A stretch of 64,000 bases of DNA from a virus. The notes below the pieces were generated by a model. It worked only from the letters and a program-made list of their open reading frames with translations, was not told the origin of the DNA and made no database searches. Both the position numbers and the translations under genes were made by a program. Numbering within the stretch: the stretch's first letter is position 1; each line of letters opens with the position of its first letter. This document shows, one piece after another, positions 1-64,000 of this stretch. The stretch lies in the UHGV virus genome UHGV-1356548; one strand, written 5' to 3'.

Positions 1-51
1 CAGATGACCCTCGTATTCGGGCTGATTTAGAAGCCTCTGCCAACAAACTGG

Positions 52-82
52 AAAAAAAAAAAATGAGAGCATCCTTGCTCTC
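52..82 (-). terminator. rho-independent terminator downstream of nrdD
   Basis: Inverted repeat GAGAGCA-TCCT-TGCTCTC (65-82) followed on the minus strand by a 12-nt U tract (A run 52-63 on plus strand), immediately 3' of the nrdD stop at 94. Confidence 0.55.
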
Positions 83-15105: not shown

Positions 15106-15559
15106 GGTAACCTTCTATCCACGAAAAGTCAGTCTTCCATTCTGGAACTTTACTAAGCTCACGCCACTCTGCAAAGCAGTCTCGGTAATAGGCCTCTGCC
15201 ATACCCTTGGTGATCTTATTCACCTTAGCCAACTGATTAACTGCCTGAGCATACTTTCCACGGATATTTGCTAACCCAGGATGCACAGATGTGTGACAAT
15301 CTGGGCACAACGCTATCAGTCCGACAAGCCGGATCACTCCCTCTTCGAAAGTGTAAAGTTCATGACACTCCACTGGATGTTTGCTGCCTTTACCTCCGCA
15401 CACCTCACAAGTGTAGTTGGCTTCTCTGTAGCACTTCTTACGGATCTTATCCCACTCACTCTTCTTCACAGCGTTTCGTAGGTTATTATACCAAGCTGTT
15501 TCTGGGATCAGTTGCACAATAAGCCTGCGTTCAGACTTCATTAAACGTCCGTCTTCCAC
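15095..15559 (-). CDS. HNH-type zinc-finger endonuclease candidate
   Basis: CEVCGGKGSKHPVECHEL ... LCPDCHTSVH arrangement (CxxC...H...CxxCH) typical of HNH nucleases. Confidence 0.4.
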   Translation of the reverse strand: MEDGRLMKSERRLIVQLIPETAWYNNLRNAVKKSEWDKIRKKCYREANYTCEVCGGKGSKHPVECHELYTFEEGVIRLVGLIALCPDCHTSVHPGLANIRGKYAQAVNQLAKVNKITKGMAEAYYRDCFAEWRELSKVPEWKTDFSWIEGYLDG

Positions 15560-15568
15560 GTATTCTCC

Positions 15569-15775
15569 TCATTCAAAGAAATGGGTGCGAGGACAAGATC
15601 CAGCCTCGCCTTGTTTCACAAGCTCGTAGAGCTCACCTTGGCTTGTCTCATAAAGGCAAATACGTTTACCATTGTCCCGATATACATCGACAAGATACGC
15701 TGTTTCACCTGCAAACACGACACCACAGGCCAGACATGCTGCCATGAACAAAATTGCCAACAGAAAATCTTTCAT
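15569..15775 (-). CDS. small secreted/membrane protein (signal peptide)
   Basis: 68-aa ORF with hydrophobic N-terminus (LLAILFMAACLACGVVFA); lies downstream of the endolysin. Confidence 0.35.
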   Translation of the reverse strand: MKDFLLAILFMAACLACGVVFAGETAYLVDVYRDNGKRICLYETSQGELYELVKQGEAGSCPRTHFFE

Positions 15776-15838
15776 GGTTAAACCCTTTCGAACATTCTAT
15801 GAGGCAACAATACCACGTCCGTGTGGTTATGTCAATGA

Positions 15839-16309
15839 TCAATCAAGGACAACACCGCCTGCCTTTTTAAACACCTCGATCAACTTCTCAATCTTCTGTT
15901 CATGCTGACCATATCCAGCACCAGGTAACGAAGCCCAGCGGGAACGGCATTTATGGATAGCCTCGTGGATACGCCCTTCGTCAATGTCGGCGAGAGCCTT
16001 GCACTCACGGATCAGTTGCAACGCAATCTTGTCCTGACTGGCAGGGCCAAAATCTGGCAATCCTAACTGTTCCATGTAGTGTTTAGCAAACTTCTCCAAA
16101 ACCTGGTAACGCCCAGCAGCGGAGGAGGTAAGTTTAGCATTTAGCTTAACGTACACACCTGGATGCTTGCTGTAATCGCTAAACAGCTTGCCACCAACTA
16201 TGACATCATAGCCCCGATCCTTGGTGGGTTGTCTACCATTATCTGTGCCTTCTGAATATGCGATCATATCCAAGAAAGCTTTTCGTTGAACATTTTTATC
16301 AAGTTTCAT
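15839..16309 (-). CDS. endolysin, lambda R-like lytic transglycosylase
   Basis: Near-collinear match by eye to phage lambda R along the whole 156 aa (NVQRKAFLDMIAYSEGTDNGRQ..., GYDVIVGG, AGRYQ, WASLPGAGYGQ). Confidence 0.85.
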   Translation of the reverse strand: MKLDKNVQRKAFLDMIAYSEGTDNGRQPTKDRGYDVIVGGKLFSDYSKHPGVYVKLNAKLTSSAAGRYQVLEKFAKHYMEQLGLPDFGPASQDKIALQLIRECKALADIDEGRIHEAIHKCRSRWASLPGAGYGQHEQKIEKLIEVFKKAGGVVLD

Positions 16310-16433
16310 TTTTCATACTCTCCAGTTTACTCATAACTAACCAGATCAACAACACTACACAGTGTGGTTATGTAGGTGCCAATTGAAAAACCATCATTCG
16401 ATTGGCTACCGTTACCTACTAAACCTTCCTACA

Positions 16434-17717
16434 TCATTCCAGAACCTCCCAAGTGTCTGGGTCAACATTTCGGACGCAGATACCGACAGGGAATTGGTAG
16501 TTGTTGTCTTCTGTCCTTGATTGATATTTGAAGGTGACAAACTTGCCGATCATTTCCTGCATCCTGTCATAGCTACGCTCCTCGTGCGTGCCTTTCATCT
16601 TCATTTTAACAATAACACCTTCCTTGTCAACACAGATAAGAACACCTTCATCATTCTTATCTTTCTCAACGTCAATAACTTTCACCTCTGCGTCGTTGAA
16701 CTTTTTCCATTTCAATGCTTCAGATGTTCGCTGACCGTACTCGTATTTACCGCAGAAATTACGCATGATAGTACCTTCATATCCTTCGGACATGAATATA
16801 CCAACAGATTCTTCGCAATGATCAACTGTGTACGCAAGCTCTGCGTCAACAACCTTGATATGGTCAAGCATCAGAGTGGTAACGGTATCCTCTGCATCCA
16901 TAAGATCCTTGCAGCGTCCAGACTCTGTTTCTGGATCCCACCACACCTTGTCGCTAGGAATATCAAAAATGTGATACTCCAGATCGTAGCTACAGTACCC
17001 ACCGTAACGCAAATCATCACGAACAGGCTCAACATCGACAGGAATATCTACCTTGTTGAAGTTTTTGTATGTTGATAAACCTGCCTTAATTGCTGCATGA
17101 CGGCGTTTTTTATCTGCCTCATAGTCTTTATCGATCTCGGCCTGAATCTCTTCCTGTGTGCGCCACCGTTTAGCAAGAGACACTATTTTCTGCAAAGGAA
17201 GACCATGAATGTATAGTTCCCCATCAAGTTGTTTAATCCCAGTGGTAGAATGGAAAGAACGAAGTTGCTCTAAAAGCTTTCCTTGAATAGGGTAGGACTT
17301 ATTACCACGGGAAATAAATTTAGGCTCACCATTTTGGAAAACAACAAGCAGACGAAGGCCATCTAACTTACGCAAGATCCAGCAAGGTAATTTAAGTGCC
17401 TTGCCACGCTTCAGGTAGTCATGCACCAGCATGGGTAAAAGATCAACACCCTGCTCGCAATCTTCCATGTTTTCAACATACCCCAGACGGACTTGTTTTT
17501 CCCACTTGCTGATAGCCTCAAGCTCGGCCTGTTGCTCAGCTGTAGTCTCGTTGGCACGACCTACGTTCTTAGGTGTGCATACCGTCTCTTTGTACTGCAG
17601 TTTACCATCAAGCTTGCCAAACTCTACGATAACCTTATCACCATCCGTGAATACTTTCCACTGTTGGTAGCTGCCATCTTTATTCAGTGCGTACAGTGTT
17701 GTTTTGATCTGATGCAT
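16434..17717 (-). CDS. ATP-dependent DNA ligase (intact copy)
   Basis: Motif I KLDGLR (KxDGxR), motif III LDGELYIHG, motif IV EGTIMR, motif V LKWKK; 427 aa. Its last 47 codons lie outside the duplicated unit. Confidence 0.7.
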   Translation of the reverse strand: MHQIKTTLYALNKDGSYQQWKVFTDGDKVIVEFGKLDGKLQYKETVCTPKNVGRANETTAEQQAELEAISKWEKQVRLGYVENMEDCEQGVDLLPMLVHDYLKRGKALKLPCWILRKLDGLRLLVVFQNGEPKFISRGNKSYPIQGKLLEQLRSFHSTTGIKQLDGELYIHGLPLQKIVSLAKRWRTQEEIQAEIDKDYEADKKRRHAAIKAGLSTYKNFNKVDIPVDVEPVRDDLRYGGYCSYDLEYHIFDIPSDKVWWDPETESGRCKDLMDAEDTVTTLMLDHIKVVDAELAYTVDHCEESVGIFMSEGYEGTIMRNFCGKYEYGQRTSEALKWKKFNDAEVKVIDVEKDKNDEGVLICVDKEGVIVKMKMKGTHEERSYDRMQEMIGKFVTFKYQSRTEDNNYQFPVGICVRNVDPDTWEVLE

Positions 17718-17986
17718 TACTCGGCCTCTTCCTTAAAAATTTTAAACATCTCTTCTTTACTCATTACCAACCAGTCTCCCATAAAGTCAACTAGCCAATC
17801 TCCCTGGTACAAGACAAGGTTACCAAAAGGCTCGACAAGCTCACACATGCGACGAAGATCTCTGGTCCGAACAGGTGACGATGTAAACACACCTGTATCA
17901 ATCCACCGTTGCAGATCAGATACTGATGAAGAGCTTCCGTCAAACTGATGTGCTTCTACAGGTTTAGCAAGATTAAATAACGGCAT
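17717..17986 (-). CDS. hypothetical protein
   Basis: 89-aa ORF; stop overlaps ligase start (TAATG). Confidence 0.3.
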   Translation of the reverse strand: MPLFNLAKPVEAHQFDGSSSSVSDLQRWIDTGVFTSSPVRTRDLRRMCELVEPFGNLVLYQGDWLVDFMGDWLVMSKEEMFKIFKEEAE

Positions 17987-18281
17987 TGCAGTCCTCCTTC
18001 TGTAGTAGGTCTTTTATAGGATAAACAAGTAAGTGTGGGTCGTAATAACGTATAGTCCTATTCTGCCACACTATGAACTTTATTACAACCAAATTTACAA
18101 TATCTTTATCACCATGTAGCCCAACACACACATTTGTCCATATTTTGTGGTTGAAGACCTTGCTATCGATGTAGATTTTAGTGTCAAACTTATCTTCCAT
18201 TCTACCAATAAGTTTGATCAGCTCCTTCATCTGGTCGCCAAACACAGCATCTTTTTCAAGATCTCTGGAATGCTTGTACAT
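17973..18281 (-). CDS. hypothetical protein
   Basis: 102-aa ORF. Confidence 0.3.
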   Translation of the reverse strand: MYKHSRDLEKDAVFGDQMKELIKLIGRMEDKFDTKIYIDSKVFNHKIWTNVCVGLHGDKDIVNLVVIKFIVWQNRTIRYYDPHLLVYPIKDLLQKEDCNAVI

Positions 18282-18310
18282 AACTGACTACCTCACTGCA
18301 TACTTTCCAT

Positions 18311-18336
18311 AATAAGTAAAGCCGGGTAATCCCGGC
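18311..18336 (-). terminator. rho-independent terminator (copy 1)
   Basis: Minus-strand GCCGGG-ATTA-CCCGGC hairpin followed by UUUACUUAUU, just 3' of the MazG-like gene stop. Confidence 0.5.
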
Positions 18337-18343
18337 TATGTTG

Positions 18344-19057
18344 TTAAATATACTCTGTTACATCCTTGAAGCTCGAAGGCTTCATAATCTTACCTTTACT
18401 GTCAAGGAATATAATAACTTTATTGCCGTTGTAGAACTCCTCTTTAGCAACGAAACCTTCGTAGCGACCACCAAAACGACGCTCAAGATCTTTAATCTCC
18501 AACTCGATGAGTTGTTCAGCAGGCATATCTGCACTGGCACCGTGTGAATGCCGTAGATGGTTGATCCGTGCAAACTTACTGTCATTAGATTTTAGAACCT
18601 TCCGCATCATCCCACACACATCCCCGCTAAGCTGGAACAGCAAAGCTGTTGATAACTCCGCTAGTCGGTAAGCTGACGCTCTTTGCTTGGATGTGTTTTT
18701 CGCAGCGATCAGTGTATCATAGAACTCACCGATCTTGAACTTAAGACCTCGCGGATTATCAAACAGGTTTGACCACTTTTCGTGGTTATCATTAACAAGA
18801 TAAGCTGCATAACTTGTGACAACGTGAAGATCGCAGGCCTCTTTTAGCAGGTGATCTCCACCATCACCTTTCTCCAGCTCTTCCAAAACCTCATTGAACT
18901 CTTCCTCAATGAAGCTAAGCTGTAATTCGAATGGTGTGTATGATTTTTTCACTTTAGCTGCCACACGGTTCCAGTTTTCCACCCAGTTGGCAGACCAAAG
19001 GTAGTTTTCAGGCTGGGACAGTTTTTCCAGGTTGTCGATCAGTTTAGTATTCAGCAT
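18344..19057 (-). CDS. MazG-like nucleotide pyrophosphohydrolase domain protein
   Basis: FIEEEFNEVLEELEKGDGGDHLLKEACDLHVV fits the EExxE...E...D acidic helix pattern of MazG/NTP-PPase family; C-terminal ~100 aa unassigned. Confidence 0.4.
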   Translation of the reverse strand: MLNTKLIDNLEKLSQPENYLWSANWVENWNRVAAKVKKSYTPFELQLSFIEEEFNEVLEELEKGDGGDHLLKEACDLHVVTSYAAYLVNDNHEKWSNLFDNPRGLKFKIGEFYDTLIAAKNTSKQRASAYRLAELSTALLFQLSGDVCGMMRKVLKSNDSKFARINHLRHSHGASADMPAEQLIELEIKDLERRFGGRYEGFVAKEEFYNGNKVIIFLDSKGKIMKPSSFKDVTEYI

Positions 19058-19070
19058 TAAAGGTCTCCTT

Positions 19071-19832
19071 TTAAAGTTCCATAAAGTTTTCTACAGTTTC
19101 AATAAATGCTTTATCAGAGAAAGCGTCAACAGCACCGTTAAACCATACAGGGATCCCGCGATCCTCATATTGATAAAGGTCGCTACGTGAAATGCCACTT
19201 CCATCTGCACTCTGCGAATCATACTTGTTTACAATCAGCAGTTTTGTGCCTTTACAAGTAGCAGGAAACAATTCCCAGTTAAAATTAATAACTGTGTTAG
19301 AACAACCTACCAGGATCACCATATCATTGCTTGTGAGAGATGTCAACAGGTCATACATGTCTGTATACTTAGGAGCAACCTCACCGAAGAACACTACATT
19401 GGGCTTAACCCAGGTATACTTGCCTGTATCTACCTCCGTGTATCCGATATTTTTAATTACATCATTACCTTCAGCATCTTCGTAGGTGATTTCAGGCAAA
19501 TACCCGTGGACATGTAAAATATCTTCATGTTTTACACCAGCACGCTCCAGCAAATCATCTACATTGGTAGTAAGGTTGATCACACGACCAGACCAGCGGG
19601 AATACCACTCAGCGATCCGAAGATGTGCAAGGTTAGGATCAACACTGCCCAGAGCTACACGACGTGCATTGTAAAAGTCATGCACCTTATAGTAGTTCTT
19701 GGCAAAGGTGTGGATGTTGCACACCTCATCGATGCTGAAATTCTCCCACATTGCAGTGCTACCAGATCGGAAAGTGGGAATACCAGATTCAGCGCTCAAA
19801 CCAGCACCGGAGATAATAATCAGTCGTCGCAT
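19071..19832 (-). CDS. Sir2-family (sirtuin-like) NAD-dependent protein, Zn-module absent
   Basis: GAGLSAESGIPTFR (sirtuin GAGxSxxSGIPxFR), DPNLAHL...TTNVDDLLERAG (PNxxH...TQNxDxLhxxAG), HVHG, KPNVVFFGE (RPxVVxFGE); no CxxC...CxxC zinc tetrad. Confidence 0.8.
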   Translation of the reverse strand: MRRLIIISGAGLSAESGIPTFRSGSTAMWENFSIDEVCNIHTFAKNYYKVHDFYNARRVALGSVDPNLAHLRIAEWYSRWSGRVINLTTNVDDLLERAGVKHEDILHVHGYLPEITYEDAEGNDVIKNIGYTEVDTGKYTWVKPNVVFFGEVAPKYTDMYDLLTSLTSNDMVILVGCSNTVINFNWELFPATCKGTKLLIVNKYDSQSADGSGISRSDLYQYEDRGIPVWFNGAVDAFSDKAFIETVENFMEL

Positions 19833-19840
19833 AAGTGTCC

Positions 19841-20191
19841 TCAGTAGATGTTTTGTTTAATCTCTATTCCAAACTTCTTGAATGAGTCAGCAGCAAGCAT
19901 AAATTTACGAGCTGCCGATGGATTAGAAGTATGCACGAAAATAATCACGTTGTCAATAAGTGGTGGCTTTCCGAATACAAGTTTCTCCTCTAGCGCAGAG
20001 AAGCAGTCGTACCCTTCAAGCACTTCACCTAGATCATTGTCAAAATGCCACTCAGAAACGCGCCTGTAGAGCTTTCTATTATCGTTAATAAAATCCATGA
20101 ACTCAGAAGAGTTCTTCAGCCAAAGAGCATCTTGGATTCCGTAATTTGACGGATCTCTCAAGTCATCTAGCCACACAATCAACTTCTTCAT
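19841..20191 (-). CDS. hypothetical protein
   Basis: Start set to ATG forming an ATGA overlap with the RNA ligase stop (MKKLIVWLDD...); 116 aa. Confidence 0.4.
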   Translation of the reverse strand: MKKLIVWLDDLRDPSNYGIQDALWLKNSSEFMDFINDNRKLYRRVSEWHFDNDLGEVLEGYDCFSALEEKLVFGKPPLIDNVIIFVHTSNPSAARKFMLAADSFKKFGIEIKQNIY

Positions 20192-21123
20192 TGCATATAG
20201 TCCTCGTTGTGAAAATAGCAATCAAGTATCTCACGGCGTTCCTGCTCCAGGAGGCAGTTCCACACATCTTCTGTGTAATTGCTACGAATGAAGTTTACCA
20301 TGCCATAAAACTCTTCGTCAATACGTTTAAAGATATCATCATCCCAAATCTTCCAAGCTTTACCCCTCATTACGGCCTTCCGTGCCAAATAGTATGGAGA
20401 CTTGATCTTCAGCTGCAGGTCATAAGGGTAGTAAGGCTTACGGATCATATACCCTTCGCCCCTTGTTTCTGCAGCTAATTCTTTTGCATAGCTGAACGGG
20501 ATTTCACGCACAGTGTGAGGACGTTTTGCACCAAGGTATTTGGCAATCCCATCTAAAGCTGCTTCTGGTAGCATTATTCCAGAATCATTATATCTGCAAC
20601 CTATCAAATATGCGCCATGGTCTTCTTGAACAATATGCGGATCTGAAGGGTGACAAATTTCAAACATGAATGTCATGTTTTCATTGCCCATAACCTTCTT
20701 GATAAGATCTAAATTACCACATTGCTCTTGGATGGTTTCCTTTGCAAGGTTACAATATGGAGAATCAAGAGACCCGGTTGTTGAGAACAATAGGTCACCT
20801 TTATGAGATGATACCACACCAAGGAATCCGTTCTTTTTCTCTACCGCAGTCACAAGCTTATTGTCAGGCAGGTTGGTGGAGTTTTCTCCCAAGTTAAACA
20901 CTTTTGTGAAGGGCCATGCCACAACATTTCCTTCATTACCTACAACAATGCCTCGGCACTCCAGTAAACGAGGGGACAAATGCCATAAATTGTTGTAAAA
21001 TACTTTTCTAGCATATTTATAGATCTTTAACCCGAGATCTGGGTAATACCTACTGGTTACAAGACCTTTGTCAACTAGGTCGTCTGCATTAAAATACTTC
21101 ATCATACGTTCCTCATTTGTCAT
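20188..21123 (-). CDS. RNA ligase-like nucleotidyltransferase
   Basis: Candidate motif I VEKKNGFLG (K-x-N-G), motif IV EGYMIRKPY, motif V LKIKSPYY; 311 aa; adjacent to kinase/phosphoesterase genes. Confidence 0.55.
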   Translation of the reverse strand: MTNEERMMKYFNADDLVDKGLVTSRYYPDLGLKIYKYARKVFYNNLWHLSPRLLECRGIVVGNEGNVVAWPFTKVFNLGENSTNLPDNKLVTAVEKKNGFLGVVSSHKGDLLFSTTGSLDSPYCNLAKETIQEQCGNLDLIKKVMGNENMTFMFEICHPSDPHIVQEDHGAYLIGCRYNDSGIMLPEAALDGIAKYLGAKRPHTVREIPFSYAKELAAETRGEGYMIRKPYYPYDLQLKIKSPYYLARKAVMRGKAWKIWDDDIFKRIDEEFYGMVNFIRSNYTEDVWNCLLEQERREILDCYFHNEDYMQ

Positions 21124-21166
21124 TTTGTCAGTCTATCCTGCCACACAAATAACCTAGTGTCAACAC

Positions 21167-21195
21167 TTGAAATTAACAAAACAGTCAGGTATACT
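21167..21195 (+). promoter_or_regulatory. sigma70-like promoter, duplicated copy at the duplication junction
   Basis: TTGAAA-N17-TATACT identical to the kinase promoter at 25828-25856; here it points into the antisense of the truncated ligase copy. Confidence 0.45.
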
Positions 21196-21235
21196 ACCGT
21201 TGAAATTAAAACGGAGGGTCACTATGTCTAAAATG

Positions 21236-22378
21236 CTATATATCGTGCGTGCCTTTCATCTTCATTTTAACAATAACACCTTCCTTGTCAACACAGATAA
21301 GAACACCTTCATCATTCTTATCTTTCTCAACGTCAATAACTTTCACCTCTGCGTCGTTGAACTTTTTCCATTTCAATGCTTCAGATGTTCGCTGACCGTA
21401 CTCGTATTTACCGCAGAAATTACGCATGATAGTACCTTCATATCCTTCGGACATGAATATACCAACAGATTCTTCGCAATGATCAACTGTGTACGCAAGC
21501 TCTGCGTCAACAACCTTGATATGGTCAAGCATCAGAGTGGTAACGGTATCCTCTGCATCCATAAGATCCTTGCAGCGTCCAGACTCTGTTTCTGGATCCC
21601 ACCACACCTTGTCGCTAGGAATATCAAAAATGTGATACTCCAGATCGTAGCTACAGTACCCACCGTAACGCAAATCATCACGAACAGGCTCAACATCGAC
21701 AGGAATATCTACCTTGTTGAAGTTTTTGTATGTTGATAAACCTGCCTTAATTGCTGCATGACGGCGTTTTTTATCTGCCTCATAGTCTTTATCGATCTCG
21801 GCCTGAATCTCTTCCTGTGTGCGCCACCGTTTAGCAAGAGACACTATTTTCTGCAAAGGAAGACCATGAATGTATAGTTCCCCATCAAGTTGTTTAATCC
21901 CAGTGGTAGAATGGAAAGAACGAAGTTGCTCTAAAAGCTTTCCTTGAATAGGGTAGGACTTATTACCACGGGAAATAAATTTAGGCTCACCATTTTGGAA
22001 AACAACAAGCAGACGAAGGCCATCTAACTTACGCAAGATCCAGCAAGGTAATTTAAGTGCCTTGCCACGCTTCAGGTAGTCATGCACCAGCATGGGTAAA
22101 AGATCAACACCCTGCTCGCAATCTTCCATGTTTTCAACATACCCCAGACGGACTTGTTTTTCCCACTTGCTGATAGCCTCAAGCTCGGCCTGTTGCTCAG
22201 CTGTAGTCTCGTTGGCACGACCTACGTTCTTAGGTGTGCATACCGTCTCTTTGTACTGCAGTTTACCATCAAGCTTGCCAAACTCTACGATAACCTTATC
22301 ACCATCCGTGAATACTTTCCACTGTTGGTAGCTGCCATCTTTATTCAGTGCGTACAGTGTTGTTTTGATCTGATGCAT
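21236..22378 (-). pseudogene. 3'-truncated duplicate of ATP-dependent DNA ligase
   Basis: Identical to residues 1-377 of the 16434-17717 product, then ends ...GTHDI* at the duplication junction, losing the last 47 residues. Confidence 0.6.
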
Positions 22379-22647
22379 TACTCGGCCTCTTCCTTAAAAA
22401 TTTTAAACATCTCTTCTTTACTCATTACCAACCAGTCTCCCATAAAGTCAACTAGCCAATCTCCCTGGTACAAGACAAGGTTACCAAAAGGCTCGACAAG
22501 CTCACACATGCGACGAAGATCTCTGGTCCGAACAGGTGACGATGTAAACACACCTGTATCAATCCACCGTTGCAGATCAGATACTGATGAAGAGCTTCCG
22601 TCAAACTGATGTGCTTCTACAGGTTTAGCAAGATTAAATAACGGCAT
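22378..22647 (-). CDS. hypothetical protein (duplicate of 17717-17986)
   Basis: Identical translation to copy 1. Confidence 0.3.
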   Translation of the reverse strand: MPLFNLAKPVEAHQFDGSSSSVSDLQRWIDTGVFTSSPVRTRDLRRMCELVEPFGNLVLYQGDWLVDFMGDWLVMSKEEMFKIFKEEAE

Positions 22648-22942
22648 TGCAGTCCTCCTTCTGTAGTAGGTCTTTTATAGGATAAACAAGTAAGTGTGGG
22701 TCGTAATAACGTATAGTCCTATTCTGCCACACTATGAACTTTATTACAACCAAATTTACAATATCTTTATCACCATGTAGCCCAACACACACATTTGTCC
22801 ATATTTTGTGGTTGAAGACCTTGCTATCGATGTAGATTTTAGTGTCAAACTTATCTTCCATTCTACCAATAAGTTTGATCAGCTCCTTCATCTGGTCGCC
22901 AAACACAGCATCTTTTTCAAGATCTCTGGAATGCTTGTACAT
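22634..22942 (-). CDS. hypothetical protein (duplicate of 17973-18281)
   Basis: Identical translation to copy 1. Confidence 0.3.
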   Translation of the reverse strand: MYKHSRDLEKDAVFGDQMKELIKLIGRMEDKFDTKIYIDSKVFNHKIWTNVCVGLHGDKDIVNLVVIKFIVWQNRTIRYYDPHLLVYPIKDLLQKEDCNAVI

Positions 22943-22971
22943 AACTGACTACCTCACTGCATACTTTCCAT

Positions 22972-22997
22972 AATAAGTAAAGCCGGGTAATCCCGGC
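22972..22997 (-). terminator. rho-independent terminator (copy 2)
   Basis: Duplicate of the 18311-18336 hairpin. Confidence 0.5.
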
Positions 22998-23004
22998 TAT
23001 GTTG

Positions 23005-23718
23005 TTAAATATACTCTGTTACATCCTTGAAGCTCGAAGGCTTCATAATCTTACCTTTACTGTCAAGGAATATAATAACTTTATTGCCGTTGTAGAACTC
23101 CTCTTTAGCAACGAAACCTTCGTAGCGACCACCAAAACGACGCTCAAGATCTTTAATCTCCAACTCGATGAGTTGTTCAGCAGGCATATCTGCACTGGCA
23201 CCGTGTGAATGCCGTAGATGGTTGATCCGTGCAAACTTACTGTCATTAGATTTTAGAACCTTCCGCATCATCCCACACACATCCCCGCTAAGCTGGAACA
23301 GCAAAGCTGTTGATAACTCCGCTAGTCGGTAAGCTGACGCTCTTTGCTTGGATGTGTTTTTCGCAGCGATCAGTGTATCATAGAACTCACCGATCTTGAA
23401 CTTAAGACCTCGCGGATTATCAAACAGGTTTGACCACTTTTCGTGGTTATCATTAACAAGATAAGCTGCATAACTTGTGACAACGTGAAGATCGCAGGCC
23501 TCTTTTAGCAGGTGATCTCCACCATCACCTTTCTCCAGCTCTTCCAAAACCTCATTGAACTCTTCCTCAATGAAGCTAAGCTGTAATTCGAATGGTGTGT
23601 ATGATTTTTTCACTTTAGCTGCCACACGGTTCCAGTTTTCCACCCAGTTGGCAGACCAAAGGTAGTTTTCAGGCTGGGACAGTTTTTCCAGGTTGTCGAT
23701 CAGTTTAGTATTCAGCAT
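23005..23718 (-). CDS. MazG-like domain protein (duplicate)
   Basis: Identical translation to 18344-19057. Confidence 0.4.
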   Translation of the reverse strand: MLNTKLIDNLEKLSQPENYLWSANWVENWNRVAAKVKKSYTPFELQLSFIEEEFNEVLEELEKGDGGDHLLKEACDLHVVTSYAAYLVNDNHEKWSNLFDNPRGLKFKIGEFYDTLIAAKNTSKQRASAYRLAELSTALLFQLSGDVCGMMRKVLKSNDSKFARINHLRHSHGASADMPAEQLIELEIKDLERRFGGRYEGFVAKEEFYNGNKVIIFLDSKGKIMKPSSFKDVTEYI

Positions 23719-23731
23719 TAAAGGTCTCCTT

Positions 23732-24493
23732 TTAAAGTTCCATAAAGTTTTCTACAGTTTCAATAAATGCTTTATCAGAGAAAGCGTCAACAGCACCGTT
23801 AAACCATACAGGGATCCCGCGATCCTCATATTGATAAAGGTCGCTACGTGAAATGCCACTTCCATCTGCACTCTGCGAATCATACTTGTTTACAATCAGC
23901 AGTTTTGTGCCTTTACAAGTAGCAGGAAACAATTCCCAGTTAAAATTAATAACTGTGTTAGAACAACCTACCAGGATCACCATATCATTGCTTGTGAGAG
24001 ATGTCAACAGGTCATACATGTCTGTATACTTAGGAGCAACCTCACCGAAGAACACTACATTGGGCTTAACCCAGGTATACTTGCCTGTATCTACCTCCGT
24101 GTATCCGATATTTTTAATTACATCATTACCTTCAGCATCTTCGTAGGTGATTTCAGGCAAATACCCGTGGACATGTAAAATATCTTCATGTTTTACACCA
24201 GCACGCTCCAGCAAATCATCTACATTGGTAGTAAGGTTGATCACACGACCAGACCAGCGGGAATACCACTCAGCGATCCGAAGATGTGCAAGGTTAGGAT
24301 CAACACTGCCCAGAGCTACACGACGTGCATTGTAAAAGTCATGCACCTTATAGTAGTTCTTGGCAAAGGTGTGGATGTTGCACACCTCATCGATGCTGAA
24401 ATTCTCCCACATTGCAGTGCTACCAGATCGGAAAGTGGGAATACCAGATTCAGCGCTCAAACCAGCACCGGAGATAATAATCAGTCGTCGCAT
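23732..24493 (-). CDS. Sir2-family protein (duplicate)
   Basis: Identical translation to 19071-19832. Confidence 0.8.
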   Translation of the reverse strand: MRRLIIISGAGLSAESGIPTFRSGSTAMWENFSIDEVCNIHTFAKNYYKVHDFYNARRVALGSVDPNLAHLRIAEWYSRWSGRVINLTTNVDDLLERAGVKHEDILHVHGYLPEITYEDAEGNDVIKNIGYTEVDTGKYTWVKPNVVFFGEVAPKYTDMYDLLTSLTSNDMVILVGCSNTVINFNWELFPATCKGTKLLIVNKYDSQSADGSGISRSDLYQYEDRGIPVWFNGAVDAFSDKAFIETVENFMEL

Positions 24494-24501
24494 AAGTGTC
24501 C

Positions 24502-24852
24502 TCAGTAGATGTTTTGTTTAATCTCTATTCCAAACTTCTTGAATGAGTCAGCAGCAAGCATAAATTTACGAGCTGCCGATGGATTAGAAGTATGCACGAA
24601 AATAATCACGTTGTCAATAAGTGGTGGCTTTCCGAATACAAGTTTCTCCTCTAGCGCAGAGAAGCAGTCGTACCCTTCAAGCACTTCACCTAGATCATTG
24701 TCAAAATGCCACTCAGAAACGCGCCTGTAGAGCTTTCTATTATCGTTAATAAAATCCATGAACTCAGAAGAGTTCTTCAGCCAAAGAGCATCTTGGATTC
24801 CGTAATTTGACGGATCTCTCAAGTCATCTAGCCACACAATCAACTTCTTCAT
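24502..24852 (-). CDS. hypothetical protein (duplicate of 19841-20191)
   Basis: Identical translation to copy 1. Confidence 0.4.
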   Translation of the reverse strand: MKKLIVWLDDLRDPSNYGIQDALWLKNSSEFMDFINDNRKLYRRVSEWHFDNDLGEVLEGYDCFSALEEKLVFGKPPLIDNVIIFVHTSNPSAARKFMLAADSFKKFGIEIKQNIY

Positions 24853-25784
24853 TGCATATAGTCCTCGTTGTGAAAATAGCAATCAAGTATCTCACGGCGT
24901 TCCTGCTCCAGGAGGCAGTTCCACACATCTTCTGTGTAATTGCTACGAATGAAGTTTACCATGCCATAAAACTCTTCGTCAATACGTTTAAAGATATCAT
25001 CATCCCAAATCTTCCAAGCTTTACCCCTCATTACGGCCTTCCGTGCCAAATAGTATGGAGACTTGATCTTCAGCTGCAGGTCATAAGGGTAGTAAGGCTT
25101 ACGGATCATATACCCTTCGCCCCTTGTTTCTGCAGCTAATTCTTTTGCATAGCTGAACGGGATTTCACGCACAGTGTGAGGACGTTTTGCACCAAGGTAT
25201 TTGGCAATCCCATCTAAAGCTGCTTCTGGTAGCATTATTCCAGAATCATTATATCTGCAACCTATCAAATATGCGCCATGGTCTTCTTGAACAATATGCG
25301 GATCTGAAGGGTGACAAATTTCAAACATGAATGTCATGTTTTCATTGCCCATAACCTTCTTGATAAGATCTAAATTACCACATTGCTCTTGGATGGTTTC
25401 CTTTGCAAGGTTACAATATGGAGAATCAAGAGACCCGGTTGTTGAGAACAATAGGTCACCTTTATGAGATGATACCACACCAAGGAATCCGTTCTTTTTC
25501 TCTACCGCAGTCACAAGCTTATTGTCAGGCAGGTTGGTGGAGTTTTCTCCCAAGTTAAACACTTTTGTGAAGGGCCATGCCACAACATTTCCTTCATTAC
25601 CTACAACAATGCCTCGGCACTCCAGTAAACGAGGGGACAAATGCCATAAATTGTTGTAAAATACTTTTCTAGCATATTTATAGATCTTTAACCCGAGATC
25701 TGGGTAATACCTACTGGTTACAAGACCTTTGTCAACTAGGTCGTCTGCATTAAAATACTTCATCATACGTTCCTCATTTGTCAT
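24849..25784 (-). CDS. RNA ligase-like nucleotidyltransferase (duplicate)
   Basis: Identical translation to 20188-21123. Confidence 0.55.
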   Translation of the reverse strand: MTNEERMMKYFNADDLVDKGLVTSRYYPDLGLKIYKYARKVFYNNLWHLSPRLLECRGIVVGNEGNVVAWPFTKVFNLGENSTNLPDNKLVTAVEKKNGFLGVVSSHKGDLLFSTTGSLDSPYCNLAKETIQEQCGNLDLIKKVMGNENMTFMFEICHPSDPHIVQEDHGAYLIGCRYNDSGIMLPEAALDGIAKYLGAKRPHTVREIPFSYAKELAAETRGEGYMIRKPYYPYDLQLKIKSPYYLARKAVMRGKAWKIWDDDIFKRIDEEFYGMVNFIRSNYTEDVWNCLLEQERREILDCYFHNEDYMQ

Positions 25785-25827
25785 TTTGTCAGTCTATCCT
25801 GCCACACAAATAACCTAGTGTCAACAC

Positions 25828-25856
25828 TTGAAATTAACAAAACAGTCAGGTATACT
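25828..25856 (+). promoter_or_regulatory. sigma70-like promoter of kinase/phosphoesterase operon
   Basis: TTGAAA (25828-25833), 17-bp spacer, TATACT (25851-25856); GGAGGG RBS precedes ATG 25885; direct repeat TTGAAATTAA occurs twice in this region. Confidence 0.5.
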
Positions 25857-25884
25857 ACCGTTGAAATTAAAACGGAGGGTCACT

Positions 25885-26295
25885 ATGTCTAAAATGCTAT
25901 ATATCGTGCGTGGTCTACCAGGGTCTGGCAAATCAACACTGGCAAATGCGCTATCTTTAGAGGGTCTGTATCCACATTTTGAGAACGACATGTTCTGGTA
26001 TGACGATGACGGCAATTACAACTGGGATGCAAGTAAAGTAACACTCGCAGCAAAATGGTGCAAAGATAACGTAGAAGATATGATGCGTATGGGATACGAC
26101 CGTATCGTGGTAAGTAATACGTTTACAAAAGAAAAACATGTGCAGGAATATGTTGACATGGCAATCAGTCATGGGTATAGTTATACCGTGATCGTGGTTG
26201 AAAACCGCCACGGTAATAAAAGCATTCATGATGTTCCAGACAAGGTTGTGGATCGTATGGAACGCCAGCTTAAAAACTGCATTAAACTTAAATGA
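25885..26295 (+). CDS. P-loop polynucleotide 5'-kinase-like protein
   Basis: Walker A RGLPGSGKST at residues 9-18 and overall resemblance to the kinase domain of T4 Pnk; start moved to ATG 25885 (the ORF-track TTG start at 25828 lies in the promoter). Confidence 0.55.
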   Translation: MSKMLYIVRGLPGSGKSTLANALSLEGLYPHFENDMFWYDDDGNYNWDASKVTLAAKWCKDNVEDMMRMGYDRIVVSNTFTKEKHVQEYVDMAISHGYSYTVIVVENRHGNKSIHDVPDKVVDRMERQLKNCIKLK

Positions 26296-26302
26296 GGAAT
26301 GT

Positions 26303-26857
26303 ATGAAATACTTTGTAACAAGCGACACACACTTTCTCCACCAGCGGGTCATGGAGTTTGATTCATGTCAAAAACACAGATCTCAGTATGATCACAATCT
26401 TGACAGTATGAATGCGGGAATCATCGCCAAGTGGAACTCTGTTGTGTCACCTGCAGACACTGTGTTCCACTTGGGAGATATTGCGTGCACTAATGATAAG
26501 AATATCAACAACTTACTTCCAGATATTCTAAATATGTTGAACGGACATATTATTCTTGTTCGTGGCAACCATGACACAAGGACGACTGTCAGAATTATGA
26601 AAGAGTTCGGTCATGAGGTTGTAGATTATTACGAGCTTCGCCACAACAAGAATTTGATCTGTATGAGCCATTACCAGTTTGCAAAGTGGAACAGAAAGCC
26701 TCACGGATCAGTCCAACTGTTCGGTCATGCTCACGGAACCACACAACAGTTGTTTGGCAGGCAGCTTGATGTCGGTTGGGATGTGTGGGGGAGACTCTTA
26801 CCATTAGAAGAGGCATACCGTATTGCAATGAGTTTTGATATTGACAGCAGGGAGTAA
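26303..26857 (+). CDS. calcineurin-like metallophosphoesterase
   Basis: Motifs VTSDTHF (DxH), GDIA (GD), GNHD, GHAH in canonical order; start at ATG 26303 (MKYFVTSDTHF). Confidence 0.7.
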   Translation: MKYFVTSDTHFLHQRVMEFDSCQKHRSQYDHNLDSMNAGIIAKWNSVVSPADTVFHLGDIACTNDKNINNLLPDILNMLNGHIILVRGNHDTRTTVRIMKEFGHEVVDYYELRHNKNLICMSHYQFAKWNRKPHGSVQLFGHAHGTTQQLFGRQLDVGWDVWGRLLPLEEAYRIAMSFDIDSRE

Positions 26858-26870
26858 TCCCTGCTATTTT
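26846..26870 (+). terminator. rho-independent terminator
   Basis: AGCAGGGA-GTAA-TCCCTGCT hairpin (stop codon in loop) followed by ATTTT. Confidence 0.5.
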
Positions 26871-26904
26871 AAAGAAAATTGCCACACAAGGAGAATCAGG
26901 AGAT

Positions 26905-27255
26905 ATGAAAGATGGGGATAAGCTGCTATATCTTAAAGTCCCCCTTGAAATACTATCTATGTCAAAAGTTTTGAATGACACAACTGGGGAGGTTGTTGTT
27001 CTTGACTTGTATGACAAGATCGTATACTGCTACCTGCACAACTGGTATAAGCTTGGAGGAAATTCACGCTTCACACCAAGCACAAGGAAAATTGCAGCAG
27101 ATGTTGGGATAAAGAAAACAAAAGCAGCAGCGTGCGTTAAAACTTTAGAATGTGCAGGAGTGGTTGAAACATCCACACAAGGGAGAGGTAAAAGATGCAC
27201 ATTTTCCAAAGTTTTGCCACCAGAAGAAGTTATTCGGATGTCAACAACTGGTTAG
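26905..27255 (+). CDS. small putative DNA-binding protein (possible winged-helix)
   Basis: 116-aa ORF with AGGAGA RBS; segment PSTRKIAADVGIKKTKAAACVKTLECAGVVE resembles an HTH/winged-helix recognition region; sits directly upstream of the iteron array. Confidence 0.3.
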   Translation: MKDGDKLLYLKVPLEILSMSKVLNDTTGEVVVLDLYDKIVYCYLHNWYKLGGNSRFTPSTRKIAADVGIKKTKAAACVKTLECAGVVETSTQGRGKRCTFSKVLPPEEVIRMSTTG

Positions 27256-27329
27256 ACCAGTAAAAACTTAAATATCTGTACTATAAGGATTCGTATGTTT
27301 TATGTTCGCCATGGAACGGATACTATTAA

Positions 27330-27412
27330 CTGTCCGTGATACGGACACTACTGTCCGTCACGCGGACACATCTGCCCGTAATACGGACACTAGCTGTCCG
27401 TGATACGGACAC
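27330..27412. repeat. iteron array: four 19-bp dyad-symmetric repeats
   Basis: CTGTCCGTGATACGGACAC (27330), CTGTCCGTCACGCGGACAC (27351), CTGCCCGTAATACGGACAC (27372), CTGTCCGTGATACGGACAC (27394); spacing 21/21/22 bp; each has inverted half-sites GTCCG...CGGAC; a degenerate half-site ACGGATAC sits at about 27316. Confidence 0.85.
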
Positions 27413-27916
27413 ATAAAGAATATAACTAAAATAACTAAATAATAAAAAAATAAAAGATCTAGTACTTATGGTACTAAGTACATATACTTAACTTATGTAG
27501 AATATACTAGATCCTAAGTACCATGTTTTAAATTTATTACTTACTATGGGCAGTGTCGGCCCTTCATTGGCACTCGCCTACGAGGGGCGAGATGCCGGGC
27601 CTCTTTGGTGCACACAATAACAGAAGTTCATACATACAGGTCTGTTAACATGTGTGGGAGCGAAGCGATAGCGCAGGCCAAAGGCCGAGCACTGATGTGG
27701 ACCACCGACGAAAGCTTGCCAGCGCCGTAAGGAGTCGGTTGAGAGTCTCCCGCGCGAGCTTGGATGAAGTTTATGTGTGGAAACTGACAAGAAGGCCCCT
27801 AAATCGCTCCACAGCTATATAAACTATACCAGGTAATGCAATCGCACCAGTTTGATAGAAAAGCTCGTTACAAAGCGATACAGTTAGTTTTTCTATAACT
27901 TGAAGAGGAGGCAGCT

Positions 27917-28495
27917 ATGGGTTCACGCAAAGATGACCGTGAAAAGATTGCAAAACGTTATCAGAATGAAGAACAGATGGAGAAAACTTTCAAGTGGAAG
28001 CCCGGTTTCCAGCGTAATCATTCTAACGCTCGTGATCGTAAGCATCCGGATAAGTGGCTAACACCGCCAAATGATGGCATGCAGGTTGGGGATGAGAAGG
28101 AGATGTCGCCTGGAAAAGATGGCAACTACATTCGCACTAAGGACGCTGGTCCAAAGGATGACAGCTATCTTGTAGATAAGGTTCTTGATGGTATCAATGT
28201 AGATGTTGACACTGCACGAAACCTTTTTCTTGGGTGGTATCGCACAGGTTTTTTCGACATCAAGGCTATTCGTCGTGTTTGTGATATTAAAAAGTCTGCA
28301 TATGATGACGACTCGTTACATCGCACCCTGAGACAATATTCAGAAAGATATGGTCATCCGGTTATCACTCTTGACGATGTTAACGAAGTGATGTATCATG
28401 CAGAGGTTGTTGCAGGAAGATTTGGTGATGCATATCTTGATATCCTTTCTGCAAAGGATGAGGTAATGTTAAATAAGATTTACTATGAACGCTGA
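27917..28495 (+). CDS. hypothetical protein
   Basis: 192-aa ORF with GAGGAGG RBS. Confidence 0.4.
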   Translation: MGSRKDDREKIAKRYQNEEQMEKTFKWKPGFQRNHSNARDRKHPDKWLTPPNDGMQVGDEKEMSPGKDGNYIRTKDAGPKDDSYLVDKVLDGINVDVDTARNLFLGWYRTGFFDIKAIRRVCDIKKSAYDDDSLHRTLRQYSERYGHPVITLDDVNEVMYHAEVVAGRFGDAYLDILSAKDEVMLNKIYYER

Positions 28496-28505
28496 GGAGC
28501 GCTTA

Positions 28506-28694
28506 ATGAACAACCCGGTAGCAAAGAACTGTAATAAGTTCAACAAGTCTGCAATTCACACTGACAGGAAAAAGAGCTGGTCTCCTGACATTGACGAGGA
28601 GCTTGAGAGTTACTTTGAAGACCTGGTCACTAATGCAGATGAGGTTGCGATTAAAGAATACGCAGACAGGAAGGATAAGGCCGGAATCTGTTGA
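28506..28694 (+). CDS. hypothetical protein
   Basis: Start trimmed to ATG 28506 (RBS GAGGAG) to avoid overlap with the upstream stop; acidic small protein. Confidence 0.3.
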   Translation: MNNPVAKNCNKFNKSAIHTDRKKSWSPDIDEELESYFEDLVTNADEVAIKEYADRKDKAGIC

Positions 28695-31026: not shown

Positions 31027-31425
31027 ATGATTTCAGTTTTAACATGGCTGAGCAGGTATAGAGGGATCATAAAAGGTTTAGTTTTTGCAGCTGCGATAGG
31101 TACAGCTTATCTTGGGGCCGTGTATTGGTTTAACTCTAAGCTTAATGATGCCTACCAAGAAGGTGTGTCAGCAACAGAGTTAAAGTGGGAACGGATCCTT
31201 GATCAGCAACAAAAGCAGGCCGACAAAATTAAAATGGGCCACGCAGAGGAGGTTAAAAACCTTGAAAAATCCCTTTCTGATCTACAGGATAAATTAAATA
31301 TGGCTGAGAAGGCAGGTAAAGAAAAGCAGATTATTTACCTCCAGTCACCTGAGGGTAAGAAGTCAACACTCCCTGATCAGCTTATAGATATTTATAATGA
31401 GAGTATTAATCAGGAGGGTAGATGA
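31027..31425 (+). CDS. i-spanin (Rz-like)
   Basis: N-terminal transmembrane helix (GIIKGLVFAAAIGTAYLGAVYWF) then charged coiled-coil-like periplasmic domain; ATGA overlap with the downstream lipoprotein gene. Confidence 0.6.
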   Translation: MISVLTWLSRYRGIIKGLVFAAAIGTAYLGAVYWFNSKLNDAYQEGVSATELKWERILDQQQKQADKIKMGHAEEVKNLEKSLSDLQDKLNMAEKAGKEKQIIYLQSPEGKKSTLPDQLIDIYNESINQEGR

Positions 31426-62350: not shown

Positions 62351-62359
62351 CCTTTAAAG

Positions 62360-62386
62360 CCCCGCTTCGGCGGGGTTTATTTTTAT
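62360..62386 (+). terminator. rho-independent terminator
   Basis: CCCCGC-TTCG-GCGGGG hairpin followed by TTTATTTTTAT. Confidence 0.7.
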
Positions 62387-62393
62387 GCTCAGA

Positions 62394-62422
62394 TTGACTA
62401 TTGTTACAAAATTTGGTAAAAT
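62394..62422 (+). promoter_or_regulatory. sigma70-like promoter with extended -10 (TGgTAAAAT)
   Basis: TTGACT, 17-bp spacer ending TGG, TAAAAT; followed by GGAGGA RBS and a GTG start at 62456. Confidence 0.5.
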
Positions 62423-62455
62423 ACCTTGTAGAGATTTTCATACCGGAGGAGTGAC

Positions 62456-63946: not shown

Positions 63947-63957
63947 GGCGGCGAGAT

Positions 63958-64000
63958 ATGGCAGAGATTAAGTCGGATGTTAACCACATCCACGCTCTGC
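63958..64000 (+). CDS. hypothetical protein (5' fragment, runs off window)
   Basis: ATG at 63958 (MAEIKSDVNHIHAL...) open to the window end. Confidence 0.25.
   Translation, partial: MAEIKSDVNHIHAL

Follow-up and report, generated by a model that had tools for sequence, protein, structure and literature searches.

A chimeric antisense reading frame where two identical 4,661-bp tandem copies meet in a Vequintavirus genome sequence

In the 64,000-nt stretch of viral DNA analyzed here (UHGV-1356548, referred to below as the window), the start signals of a kinase gene stand directly ahead of an open reading frame (ORF) that runs antisense to a truncated copy of a DNA ligase gene. The locus raises the question of whether a tandem duplication has created a new gene or an antisense transcript, or whether the ORF is a by-product of a joint, which itself may have arisen either in the phage or during the handling of its DNA.

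The duplicated unit and its joint

By sequence similarity, the window belongs to a Vequintavirus (rV5-like) coliphage. When the duplication was collapsed by removing copy 2, the window was colinear with phage I29 in one alignment with 99.958% identity, the differences being a SNP at 31063, two SNPs near 62000 and a differing patch at 63648-63688. The Logan contig SRR18842488_235 matched the collapsed window at 100.000% over the fetched stretches (approximately 28.3 kb and 4.5 kb), and agreed with the window at all sites where GenBank I29 deviates from it. GenBank I29 was rejected as the origin of the window sequence on the basis of these differences, and SRR18842488_235 is an independent assembly of the same phage lineage.

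The region 16582-25912 is an exact head-to-tail duplication of a 4,661-bp unit, with a total length of 2 x 4661 + 9 bp. In a self-comparison at offset 4661, positions 16582-21251 and 21243-25912 were identical at 4670 of 4670 positions with a period of 4661, an exactness far beyond chance, and the duplication on which the initial annotation had made its reading conditional is thus present in the sequence. Copy 1 occupies 16582-21242 and copy 2 occupies 21243-25903, the removal of which gives the sequence colinear with I29. The 9-mer TCGTGCGTG was read at three positions, namely at the left end within the intact ligase gene (16582-16590), at the joint (21243-21251) and at the right end in codons 7-10 of the kinase gene (25904-25912), and both ancestral sites were found in the single-copy I29 and in relatives. 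Among 2 million simulated duplications with random endpoints, a microhomology of at least 9 bp occurred with p = 4.75e-5, which argues against a random misjoin. As possible substrates, the collapsed window holds 3,765 pairs of directly repeated 9-mers at a spacing of 0.5-10 kb. The two copies showed zero differences, and nothing indicates persistence of the arrangement.

Six genes are doubled in their entirety, a larger consequence that the initial annotation did not mention; all of them are encoded on the minus strand. RNA ligase 1 (copy 1, 20188-21123; copy 2, 24849-25784) was recognized by Pfam RNA_lig_T4_1 and PHROG 562, the cREC_REC protein (19841-20191 and 24502-24852; 116 aa in related contigs) by Pfam PF20274, the Sir2-family protein (19071-19832 and 23732-24493) by Pfam SIR2 (6.9e-28) and PHROG 2162, and a 237-aa protein of the MazG-like nucleotide pyrophosphohydrolase family (18344-19057 and 23005-23718) by PHROG 671. 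The remaining two are small ORFs of 89 and 102 aa (17717-18281 and 22378-22942), matching PHROGs 14585 and 7684 of unknown function. No gene is lost by the duplication, as one intact ligase and one intact kinase remain. The rV5 genome has been reported to be circularly permuted, and the duplication would enlarge the genome by about 3.4%. Circular permutation usually reflects headful packaging, which tolerates some extra length. No compensating deletion was found in the 59 kb of the window aligned colinearly to I29, the rest of the genome lying outside the window.

The genes at the two breakpoints are affected differently in their two copies. The intact ATP-dependent DNA ligase (427 aa; 16434-17717, minus strand) was identified by matches to Pfam DNA_ligase_A_M and DNA_ligase_OB_2, by PDB ligase matches and by the I29 annotation. 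The truncated copy (21236-22378, minus strand) retains 378 of the 427 native residues, and the last 49 residues, including QFPVGICVRNVD, which we take to be the C-terminal motif VI, are replaced by two new residues, D and I. The truncated copy keeps the nucleotidyltransferase domain (DNA_ligase_A_M match) with the KxDG adenylation motif present as ILRKLDG, and has lost the OB_2 match seen at residues 356-416 of the full ligase, so that most of the OB domain is gone. No exact match to the truncated product was on record as a gene product. The intact AAA_33 (polynucleotide-kinase-like) kinase (136 aa; 25885-26295, plus strand) was identified by Pfam and PHROG, and its P-loop, GLPGSGKS, begins at residue 10, immediately past the breakpoint.

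Start signals and body of the chimeric reading frame

The duplicated copy of the predicted kinase sigma-70 promoter, TTGAAA-N17-TATACT, lies on the plus strand at 21167-21195 (TTGAAA, 21167-21172; TATACT, 21190-21195; 17-nt spacer), as the initial annotation had proposed, and agrees with the consensus at 10 of 12 positions. Its native counterpart lies at 25828-25856. Because hexamer pairs resembling promoters abound in this region (32 as compared with 22.9 +/- 5.1 in shuffled sequences), hexamers alone are weak evidence. The site at 21167 stands out because it lies in a 100-bp divergent intergenic region and coincides with the published predicted rV5 promoter P081 (Kropinski et al. 2013, Additional file 4), with which it shares the hexamers, the 17-nt spacing, the neighboring bases and the location ahead of the kinase gene (gene 81). 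A single spacer base differs, and, unlike P081, the copy at 21167 stands in a new context, facing the ligase copy. P081 is itself a bioinformatic prediction in Table S4 of the rV5 study, given without a mapped start site (Kropinski et al. 2013), and the matches listed by a literature search for transcriptome data on Vequintavirus included no study of this genus. In 10 fetched loci both hexamers were invariant, with variation at three nearby positions only. This conservation carries little weight, since the relatives are 92-100% identical in the promoter region and give little power.

The kinase ribosome-binding site GGAGGG (21213-21218, plus strand) precedes the ATG at 21224 by 5 nt, and is identical to that before the intact kinase. 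From this ATG, a chimeric ORF of 170 aa extends to 21736 on the plus strand (21224-21736, stop included). Its N-terminus, MSKMLYIVR, is identical to the first 9 residues of the intact 136-aa kinase, and the following 161 residues are read, from 21243 on, in the codon-aligned frame antisense to the ligase copy. The anatomy of the joint described in the initial annotation, with the ribosome-binding site, the nine kinase codons and a 170-aa ORF antisense to the truncated ligase, was thus confirmed in all its parts.

The further claim that the joint creates the ORF holds for the start signals, which are fused in frame, and fails for the length. The intact ligase gene already contains a native shadow ORF of 184 codons (16521-17075, plus strand) whose frame is that of the chimeric ORF's body, and the two end at equivalent stops (17075 + 4661 = 21736). 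Since 184 codons of this antisense frame are uninterrupted even in the intact ligase, only the signals for starting come from the joint. The frame is free of stops because TTA, CTA and TCA codons are missing from the intact ligase gene between residues 215 and 400. Of the seven antisense frames in the window that stay open for 150 codons or more, six were codon-aligned in the same way. The long ORF is, then, a codon-aligned shadow ORF of the ordinary kind, already present in the intact ligase gene. It resembles other shadow ORFs in that its 161-residue body lies in the codon-aligned antisense frame of a real gene, and differs from ordinary ones, which have no promoter, ribosome-binding site or ATG, in having taken all three from the kinase gene.

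The product of the chimeric ORF, to which the peptide AFHLHFNNNTFLVNTDK belongs, is rich in Leu, Ile, Val, Asn and Phe, lacks the kinase P-loop and has one moderately hydrophobic stretch at residues 29-48. It gave no match in Pfam or PHROG, and the exact product was not on record among 153 billion gene positions. We conclude that the chimeric ORF is a by-product of the duplication joint, either a recent accident or an artefact, and not a new gene.

The surrounding transcription signals were also examined. A candidate terminator after the chimeric ORF (21752-21766) was rejected, as its folding was no better than that of shuffled sequences (z -0.06). A G+C-rich hairpin, AGCCGGG-N4-CCCGGCT, is found at 22981-22998, with its other copy at 18320-18337. 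On the plus strand it has a predicted folding energy of -16.5 kcal/mol (z -4.2) and is followed by a poor U-tract; on the minus strand its z is -3.2 and it is followed by UUUACUUAUUAU. According to this folding model, the hairpin would be the first stable structure met by a plus-strand transcript from the duplicated promoter. On the minus strand, a predicted promoter-like site in the 3' part of the ligase gene, TTGACA-N16-TAAAAT with a TG (11 of 12 consensus positions), is present in copy 2 at 21264-21291, directed across the joint toward copy 1 of RNA ligase 1, and has its native copy at 16603-16630. A search of Rfam gave no match within 15500-27000.

Origin of the joint

We give about even chances to a very recent origin in the phage itself, in which case the feature marks the new joint of an exact tandem duplication of 4,661 bp. 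In the ancestral sequence, a distance of 4,661 bp separates two occurrences of TCGTGCGTG, one within the 3' portion of the DNA ligase gene and the other in codons 7-10 of the kinase gene, which is divergently oriented. On this reading, a template switch or unequal recombination between the two 9-mers would have produced the order 9-mer, unit, 9-mer, unit, 9-mer, as has been described for the segmental amplifications of T4. The unit spans the entire divergent promoter region lying between two gene blocks out of the four proposed to be transcriptional units of rV5 (Kropinski et al.). Because this entire region is included, P081 recurs at the joint together with the kinase ribosome-binding site and nine kinase codons. 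These run into the minus-strand ligase copy, cut at residue 378, and by chance the fusion keeps to the ligase's codon-aligned antisense frame.

If the duplication exists in the phage, the predicted promoter would fire early on the host RNA polymerase, and the resulting RNA would be antisense to the second ligase copy and head-on to the leftward operon. Its translation would give a 170-aa protein with no evolved fold, a nonsense by-product. The sequence itself shows the anatomy, the microhomology, the absence of the joint from relatives and the want of homologues to the ORF, whereas promoter activity, translation and a switch in the phage rather than in vitro are what we infer. The alternative offered by the initial annotation, a nonsense fusion protein or an antisense transcript if the duplication is real, is a reasonable reading of the anatomy, except that the long ORF was not made by the joint. 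The two 4.66-kb copies should, moreover, readily collapse by homologous recombination.

The joint was sought in other sequences. A 241-bp probe spanning it gave half-length matches only in a megablast search of 50,697 phage records, and no match in E. coli genomes. The joint was absent from 122 related phage records and from 20 fetched independent loci on 19 different contigs, and an exact 48-mer spanning it was absent from IMG/VR, GTDB genomes and JGI metagenome contigs. No amplification at this locus was seen in the relatives or the sibling assembly examined, and a literature search found no paper combining Vequintavirus with tandem duplication. The contig SRR18842488_235 is single-copy and continuous across both breakpoints, and the joint is therefore absent or rare in the SRR18842488 read set.

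These results bear on a second explanation, which we hold to be a serious one of somewhat less than even probability, namely that the phage population at large lacks the joint, which represents either an in-vitro template-switch chimera, produced for example in multiple displacement amplification (MDA) or library PCR, or else a variant of low frequency. It includes the artefact that, according to the initial annotation, would refute its own reading. The joint would then have entered the consensus when a graph-based assembler walked once round a simple loop, and the chimeric ORF would be confined to the assembly or to a minor fraction of the molecules. This is favored by the same-lineage contig SRR18842488_235, which is 100.000% identical, single-copy and unbroken at both breakpoints, by the absence of the joint and both joint-specific proteins from every collection searched, and by the perfect identity of the copies. 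Contigs with an identical NrdD protein come from several SRR9161xxx runs as well, which also speaks for this explanation; we suspect these runs to be faecal virome samples.

A further point on this side is a second unique joint at positions 51-55 of the window, where the sequence is joined in inverted orientation to sequence 2.0 kb away at a 4-bp microhomology. It was found in no other contig, and an inverted joint with an intervening deletion is the commonest type of MDA chimera (PMC1855051). The joint at 51-55 suggests that the source assembly or DNA preparation was prone to rearrangement, and raises the probability of an artefact.

However, any one chimera is rare and normally loses out to the majority of reads in a consensus. 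The 9-bp repeat is also far shorter than the word length of any assembler, so that the joint must have occurred in reads, and an error of the graph alone cannot explain it. More than 70% of MDA chimera joints carry a complementarity of 2-21 nt (Lasken and Stockwell 2007, PMC1855051), and because they do, the microhomology cannot separate in-vivo recombination from in-vitro switching; the 9 bp suit recombination of the T4 type and template switching in vitro equally well. The present joint is like MDA chimeras in joining nearby sites of one molecule at a complementarity within this range. It is unlike the typical ones in that it is direct, joints in direct orientation being a minority among MDA chimeras (PMC1855051), and in that a chimera would have to reach consensus level.

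A third possibility, which we regard as improbable, is that the duplication is real and was selected, the dose of RNA ligase 1, cREC, Sir2 and the MazG-like protein being doubled against an RNA-cutting host defence with the chimeric ORF as a passenger. The unit consists of six complete genes with their own upstream region, and these genes belong to a neighborhood prototyped by phage V5 and predicted to repair cleaved RNA (PMC9503650). In addition, T4 resists toxIN via tandem amplification at microhomologies of 6-10 bp, by which tifA is amplified (PMC9391042). However, there are two copies only, the 59 kb of the window show no compensating deletion, the kinase and phosphoesterase halves of the neighborhood are not doubled, and neither a relative nor the sibling assembly has an amplification here.

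We consider it very improbable that the 170-aa ORF or its antisense RNA is functional, either as a newly born gene or as a regulator of the ligase and the RNA-repair operon. The borrowed predicted promoter, the strong ribosome-binding site and the ATG, together with the moderately hydrophobic stretch, could be taken as support. However, the product has no Pfam or PHROG homologue and is absent from the recorded gene products, six more codon-aligned shadow ORFs like its body occur in the window, and the unique arrangement with zero copy differences leaves no time for shaping by selection.

Exact tandem repeats in phage records often stem from direct terminal repeats written twice or from untrimmed overlaps of circular contigs after rotation, and an origin of this kind would make the duplication a packaging feature or a finishing error. 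This explanation has hardly any probability left and was rejected, as rV5 is reported to be circularly permuted and not to have fixed terminal repeats, both endpoints lie within genes at a 9-bp repeat, and arbitrary contig ends would give such a microhomology with p about 5e-5.

Implications and comparison with known systems

The chimeric ORF itself is no discovery on either of the two leading readings, origin in the phage or artefact. If the duplication is real, it would be a clean natural example of how large lytic phages quickly change gene dose, in which a single recombination event at a 9-bp repeat suffices to double six accessory genes with no gene lost, and in which a meaningless antisense frame is incidentally given full expression signals. 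It would also make it possible to ask whether, against host defences, rV5-like phages are limited by the dose of their predicted RNA-repair cassette. If it is real and was selected as well, the leftward half of the predicted sirtuin/cREC/RNA-ligase cassette would have been doubled, promoter included, against an RNA-cleaving defence, as a natural gene-accordion event of a kind known so far mainly from laboratory evolution of T4 and poxviruses; a shadow ORF with a ready-made promoter, ribosome-binding site and start codon would then be a first step of de novo gene birth. If the joint is an artefact, it would illustrate that exact tandem repeats and inverted joints with a microhomology of a few bases can enter phage assemblies, and that such joints yield spurious fusion genes and pseudogenes in annotation.

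The gene content of the unit corresponds to the sirtuin-linked neighborhood prototyped by Escherichia phage V5, for which a role in the repair of cleaved RNA has been predicted and of which a MazG-type enzyme is a named member (Iyer et al. 2022, PMC9503650). As in V5, a T4-like RNA ligase, cREC, a sirtuin, a MazG-like enzyme, a nucleotide kinase and a calcineurin-like phosphoesterase are found together. The gene set is ordinary for the genus and its function is a predicted one; only its partial doubling is new as compared with V5 (PMC9503650).

The closest parallel for the doubling itself is found in T4, whose segmental amplifications are bounded by microhomologies of 6-10 bp, with one copy left between neighboring repeats (PMC9391042). 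Unlike the amplifications of dmd-tifA in T4 (Srikant, Guegler and Laub 2022, PMC9391042), the present duplication has two copies only and no compensating deletion in view, is known from an assembly alone, and belongs to a phage of another family. It is like them in its head-to-tail repeats, in the short flanking repeat of which one copy remains at each joint, in its occurrence in the genome of a large lytic coliphage, and in a unit that includes the promoter driving the amplified genes (PMC9391042).

Structure and gene content of the duplicated segment

Self-comparison of the window at an offset of 4661 showed that 16582-21251 and 21243-25912 are identical at 4,670 of 4,670 positions. The repeat totals 2 x 4661 + 9 bases, and the 9-mer TCGTGCGTG thus occurs three times: at its left boundary (16582), at the joint of the two copies (21243) and at its right boundary (25904). 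The single-copy ancestor would have carried two such 9-mers, 4,661 bp apart, one inside the gene for DNA ligase, in its 3' part, and one in kinase codons 7-10. Microhomology of at least 9 bp was rare when 2 million duplications were simulated with endpoints drawn at random (p = 4.75e-5). Recombination substrates are plentiful, as the collapsed window (the window with the second copy of the unit removed) has 3,765 pairs of directly repeated 9-mers at distances of 0.5-10 kb.

The duplicated unit begins at ligase codon 378 and ends at kinase codon 9, doubling six genes and the entire divergent intergenic region; one ligase and one kinase stay intact, and the joint holds a stub of each. The minus strand encodes the intact DNA ligase (427 aa, 16434-17717; DNA_ligase_A_M and DNA_ligase_OB_2), two small ORFs (89 and 102 aa), a MazG-like protein (237 aa), Sir2 (253 aa), a cREC_REC protein and RNA ligase 1 (311 aa). 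A 100-bp divergent intergenic region separates RNA ligase 1 from the plus-strand AAA_33 kinase (136 aa, 25885-26295), which is followed by a phosphoesterase on the same strand. In rV5, this region lies between genes 81 and 82, at the border of two of the four gene blocks proposed as transcriptional units (Kropinski et al.). This same neighborhood, with Escherichia phage V5 as its prototype, is a predicted RNA-repair system comprising a sirtuin, a T4-like RNA ligase, cREC, a nucleotide kinase, MazG and a calcineurin-like phosphoesterase (Iyer et al., PMC9503650). The start of RNA ligase 1 was ambiguous (21100-21123, minus strand), as no ribosome-binding site precedes the first ATG (21123) and GAGGAA (21114-21109) lies upstream of in-frame ATGs at 21105 and 21102; gene calls in related contigs give a 304-aa form in some and a 311-aa form in others.

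The chimeric ORF and its predicted transcription

The initial annotation placed a duplicated kinase promoter and a chimeric ORF at the joint, and its sequence statements were all correct. TTGAAA-N17-TATACT was found at 21167-21195, followed by GGAGGG at 21213-21218 and an ATG at 21224 that opens a plus-strand ORF of 170 aa, with its stop at 21736. Residues 1-9 (MSKMLYIVR) are those of the kinase, whose P-loop, GLPGSGKS, begins at residue 10 and is missing from the chimera. The truncated ligase copy (21236-22378) combines 378 residues of the native enzyme with a new D and I. It retains the nucleotidyltransferase match but not that to the OB domain, lacks the final 49 residues and is most likely inactive.

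The body of the chimeric ORF runs in the antisense frame that is codon-aligned with the ligase. Because ligase residues 215-400 include no TTA, CTA or TCA codons, which are stops in that frame, the same plus-strand frame is open for 184 codons in the intact ligase (16521-17075), up to the equivalent stop. Of seven antisense frames in the window that stay open for 150 codons or more, six are codon-aligned. The product matched no Pfam or PHROG family and was unrecorded as a gene product in an exact-product look-up, and the stretch had no Rfam match. All that the joint adds is expression signals and a start that happens to be in frame, for which the chance is one in three. The proposal that a real duplication would yield either a nonsense fusion or an antisense transcript is reasonable. 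The ORF is a by-product made from a pre-existing shadow ORF, and the arrangement is unsupported outside the window.

The element at 21167-21195 is the predicted P081 (rV5 paper, Additional file 4), sharing its hexamers, 17-nt spacing and neighboring bases and differing at one spacer base. The hexamers were invariant across ten fetched loci, in which three nearby positions vary, these relatives being too close for a strong test. Promoter-like hexamer pairs are frequent in the region, at 32 against 22.9 +/- 5.1 in shuffles. The top hits of a literature search included no transcript mapping for Vequintavirus, and the duplicated promoter, predicted from sequence, is plausible but unproven. A predicted terminator just 3' of the chimeric ORF was no better than shuffles (z -0.06), and the first stable hairpin downstream of the promoter is at 22981-22998 (z -4.2), with a poor U-tract on the plus strand. 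RNA initiated at this promoter would accordingly be transcribed against the leftward operon of copy 2, head-on, over ~1.8 kb or more, unless Rho stopped it after the ORF.

Kropinski et al. anticipated bidirectional promoters between genes 81 and 82, and their table has P081 and none for gene 82. We noticed a candidate leftward promoter of the RNA ligase operon (21135-21163, minus strand; second copy, 25796-25824), composed of TTGACA (21163-21158), 17 nt and TGgCAGGAT (21143-21135), back to back with the P081 -35 with 3 nt between; its -10 is weak (3/6), hence unlisted by the promoter scan. The ligase 3' part contains a further, strong promoter-like sequence (16603-16630 and 21264-21291, minus strand), TTGACA-N16-TAAAAT preceded by a TG (11/12); the native copy faces the lysozyme gene and that in copy 2 faces RNA ligase copy 1 across the joint.

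Related phages and a second joint

Matches to the segment 15500-27000 came from 130 phage records. Almost all of these are rV5-like (Vequintavirus) coliphages, and each spans only ~6,840 of 11,501 query bases, equivalent to a single copy of the doubled part. The top match, Escherichia phage I29 (ON286975), is colinear with the collapsed window at 99.958% identity, the differences being a few SNPs, a short divergent patch (63648-63688) and the first 51 bases. In the I29 record, substitutions and small indels at this patch split a baseplate gene (I29 27177-28668) into 426-aa and 74-aa ORFs; the window has a single 496-aa ORF (62456-63946), whose exact product is present in 38 blocks of the contig collection. 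Since the Logan assembly SRR18842488 sides with the window, the I29 sequence may contain a local error there. Two adjacent 62-nt direct repeats (61787-61914; 71% identical, 66 bp apart) within a 1,199-aa tail protein gene look like a repeated protein motif. The gene for the terminase large subunit is unbroken in the window's lineage; three related contigs (L015, L018 and L022) have an HNH or Endonuclease_7 gene inserted into it.

The match to bases 1-55 of the window lies ~2.0 kb away on the other strand of the same lineage, at plus strand 7127-7181 of L034, a fetched locus, within a 116-aa ORF beyond nrdG. From base 52 on, the window matches L034 in reverse complement, running down from 5181. 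This joint is an inversion or fold-back at a poly-A run, with a 4-bp AAAA microhomology (52-55) and an implied inverted segment of 1996-2004 bp, its partner joint falling beyond the window. It was absent from all five fetched loci that cover the spot, among them the SRR18842488 contig, which is otherwise identical. Immediately 3' of nrdD, a poly-T/A run (window 40-65) measures 12-14 bases across contigs L034-L038, and two short-read contigs stop at or just past it. This homopolymer is fragile in assembly and is the site of the inverted joint.

Origin of the duplication

There is a substantial, if less than even, chance that the duplication joint is an in vitro or assembly product. It was seen in the window sequence alone, being absent from 122 related phage records, three contig collections, E. 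coli genomes and 20 loci from 19 independent contigs that encode either the exact ligase or the spanin variant of the window. Judged by these sequences, the whole arrangement is without support beyond the window, which counts against a real event or, at the least, against its fixation. The most telling case is Logan contig SRR18842488_235, a single-copy assembly of the same lineage, which is 100.000% identical over collapsed 8434-36764 and window 59456-64000, including all sites where I29 departs, differs in gene spacing by exactly 4,661 bp and is unbroken through both breakpoints. As a k-mer assembler normally breaks at such a loop if the joint is abundant, the joint is probably absent or rare in that read set. 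Two unique rearrangement joints, with zero point differences from a sibling assembly, are what a rearrangement-prone DNA preparation or assembly is expected to give. The microhomology does not decide between in vivo and in vitro switching, since MDA chimeras, mostly inverted with an intervening gap, have 2-21 nt complementarity in >70% of cases (PMC1855051). Adaptive doubling of the RNA-repair genes, which alone would give the event wider interest, appears very improbable. An untrimmed contig overlap or terminal repeat, which would have arbitrary endpoints, is excluded by the microhomology.

We consider a real, very recent duplication, possibly in just a subpopulation, to be an evenly balanced prospect. 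The reported circular permutation of rV5 (Kropinski et al.) counts in its favor, as do the 9-bp microhomology, which rules out arbitrary endpoints, and the architecture shared with T4 segmental amplifications. Such events are well known; those of T4 arise at microhomologies of 6-10 bp (PMC9391042), and there, as with the 9 bp in the window, a single copy of the microhomology is left between units.
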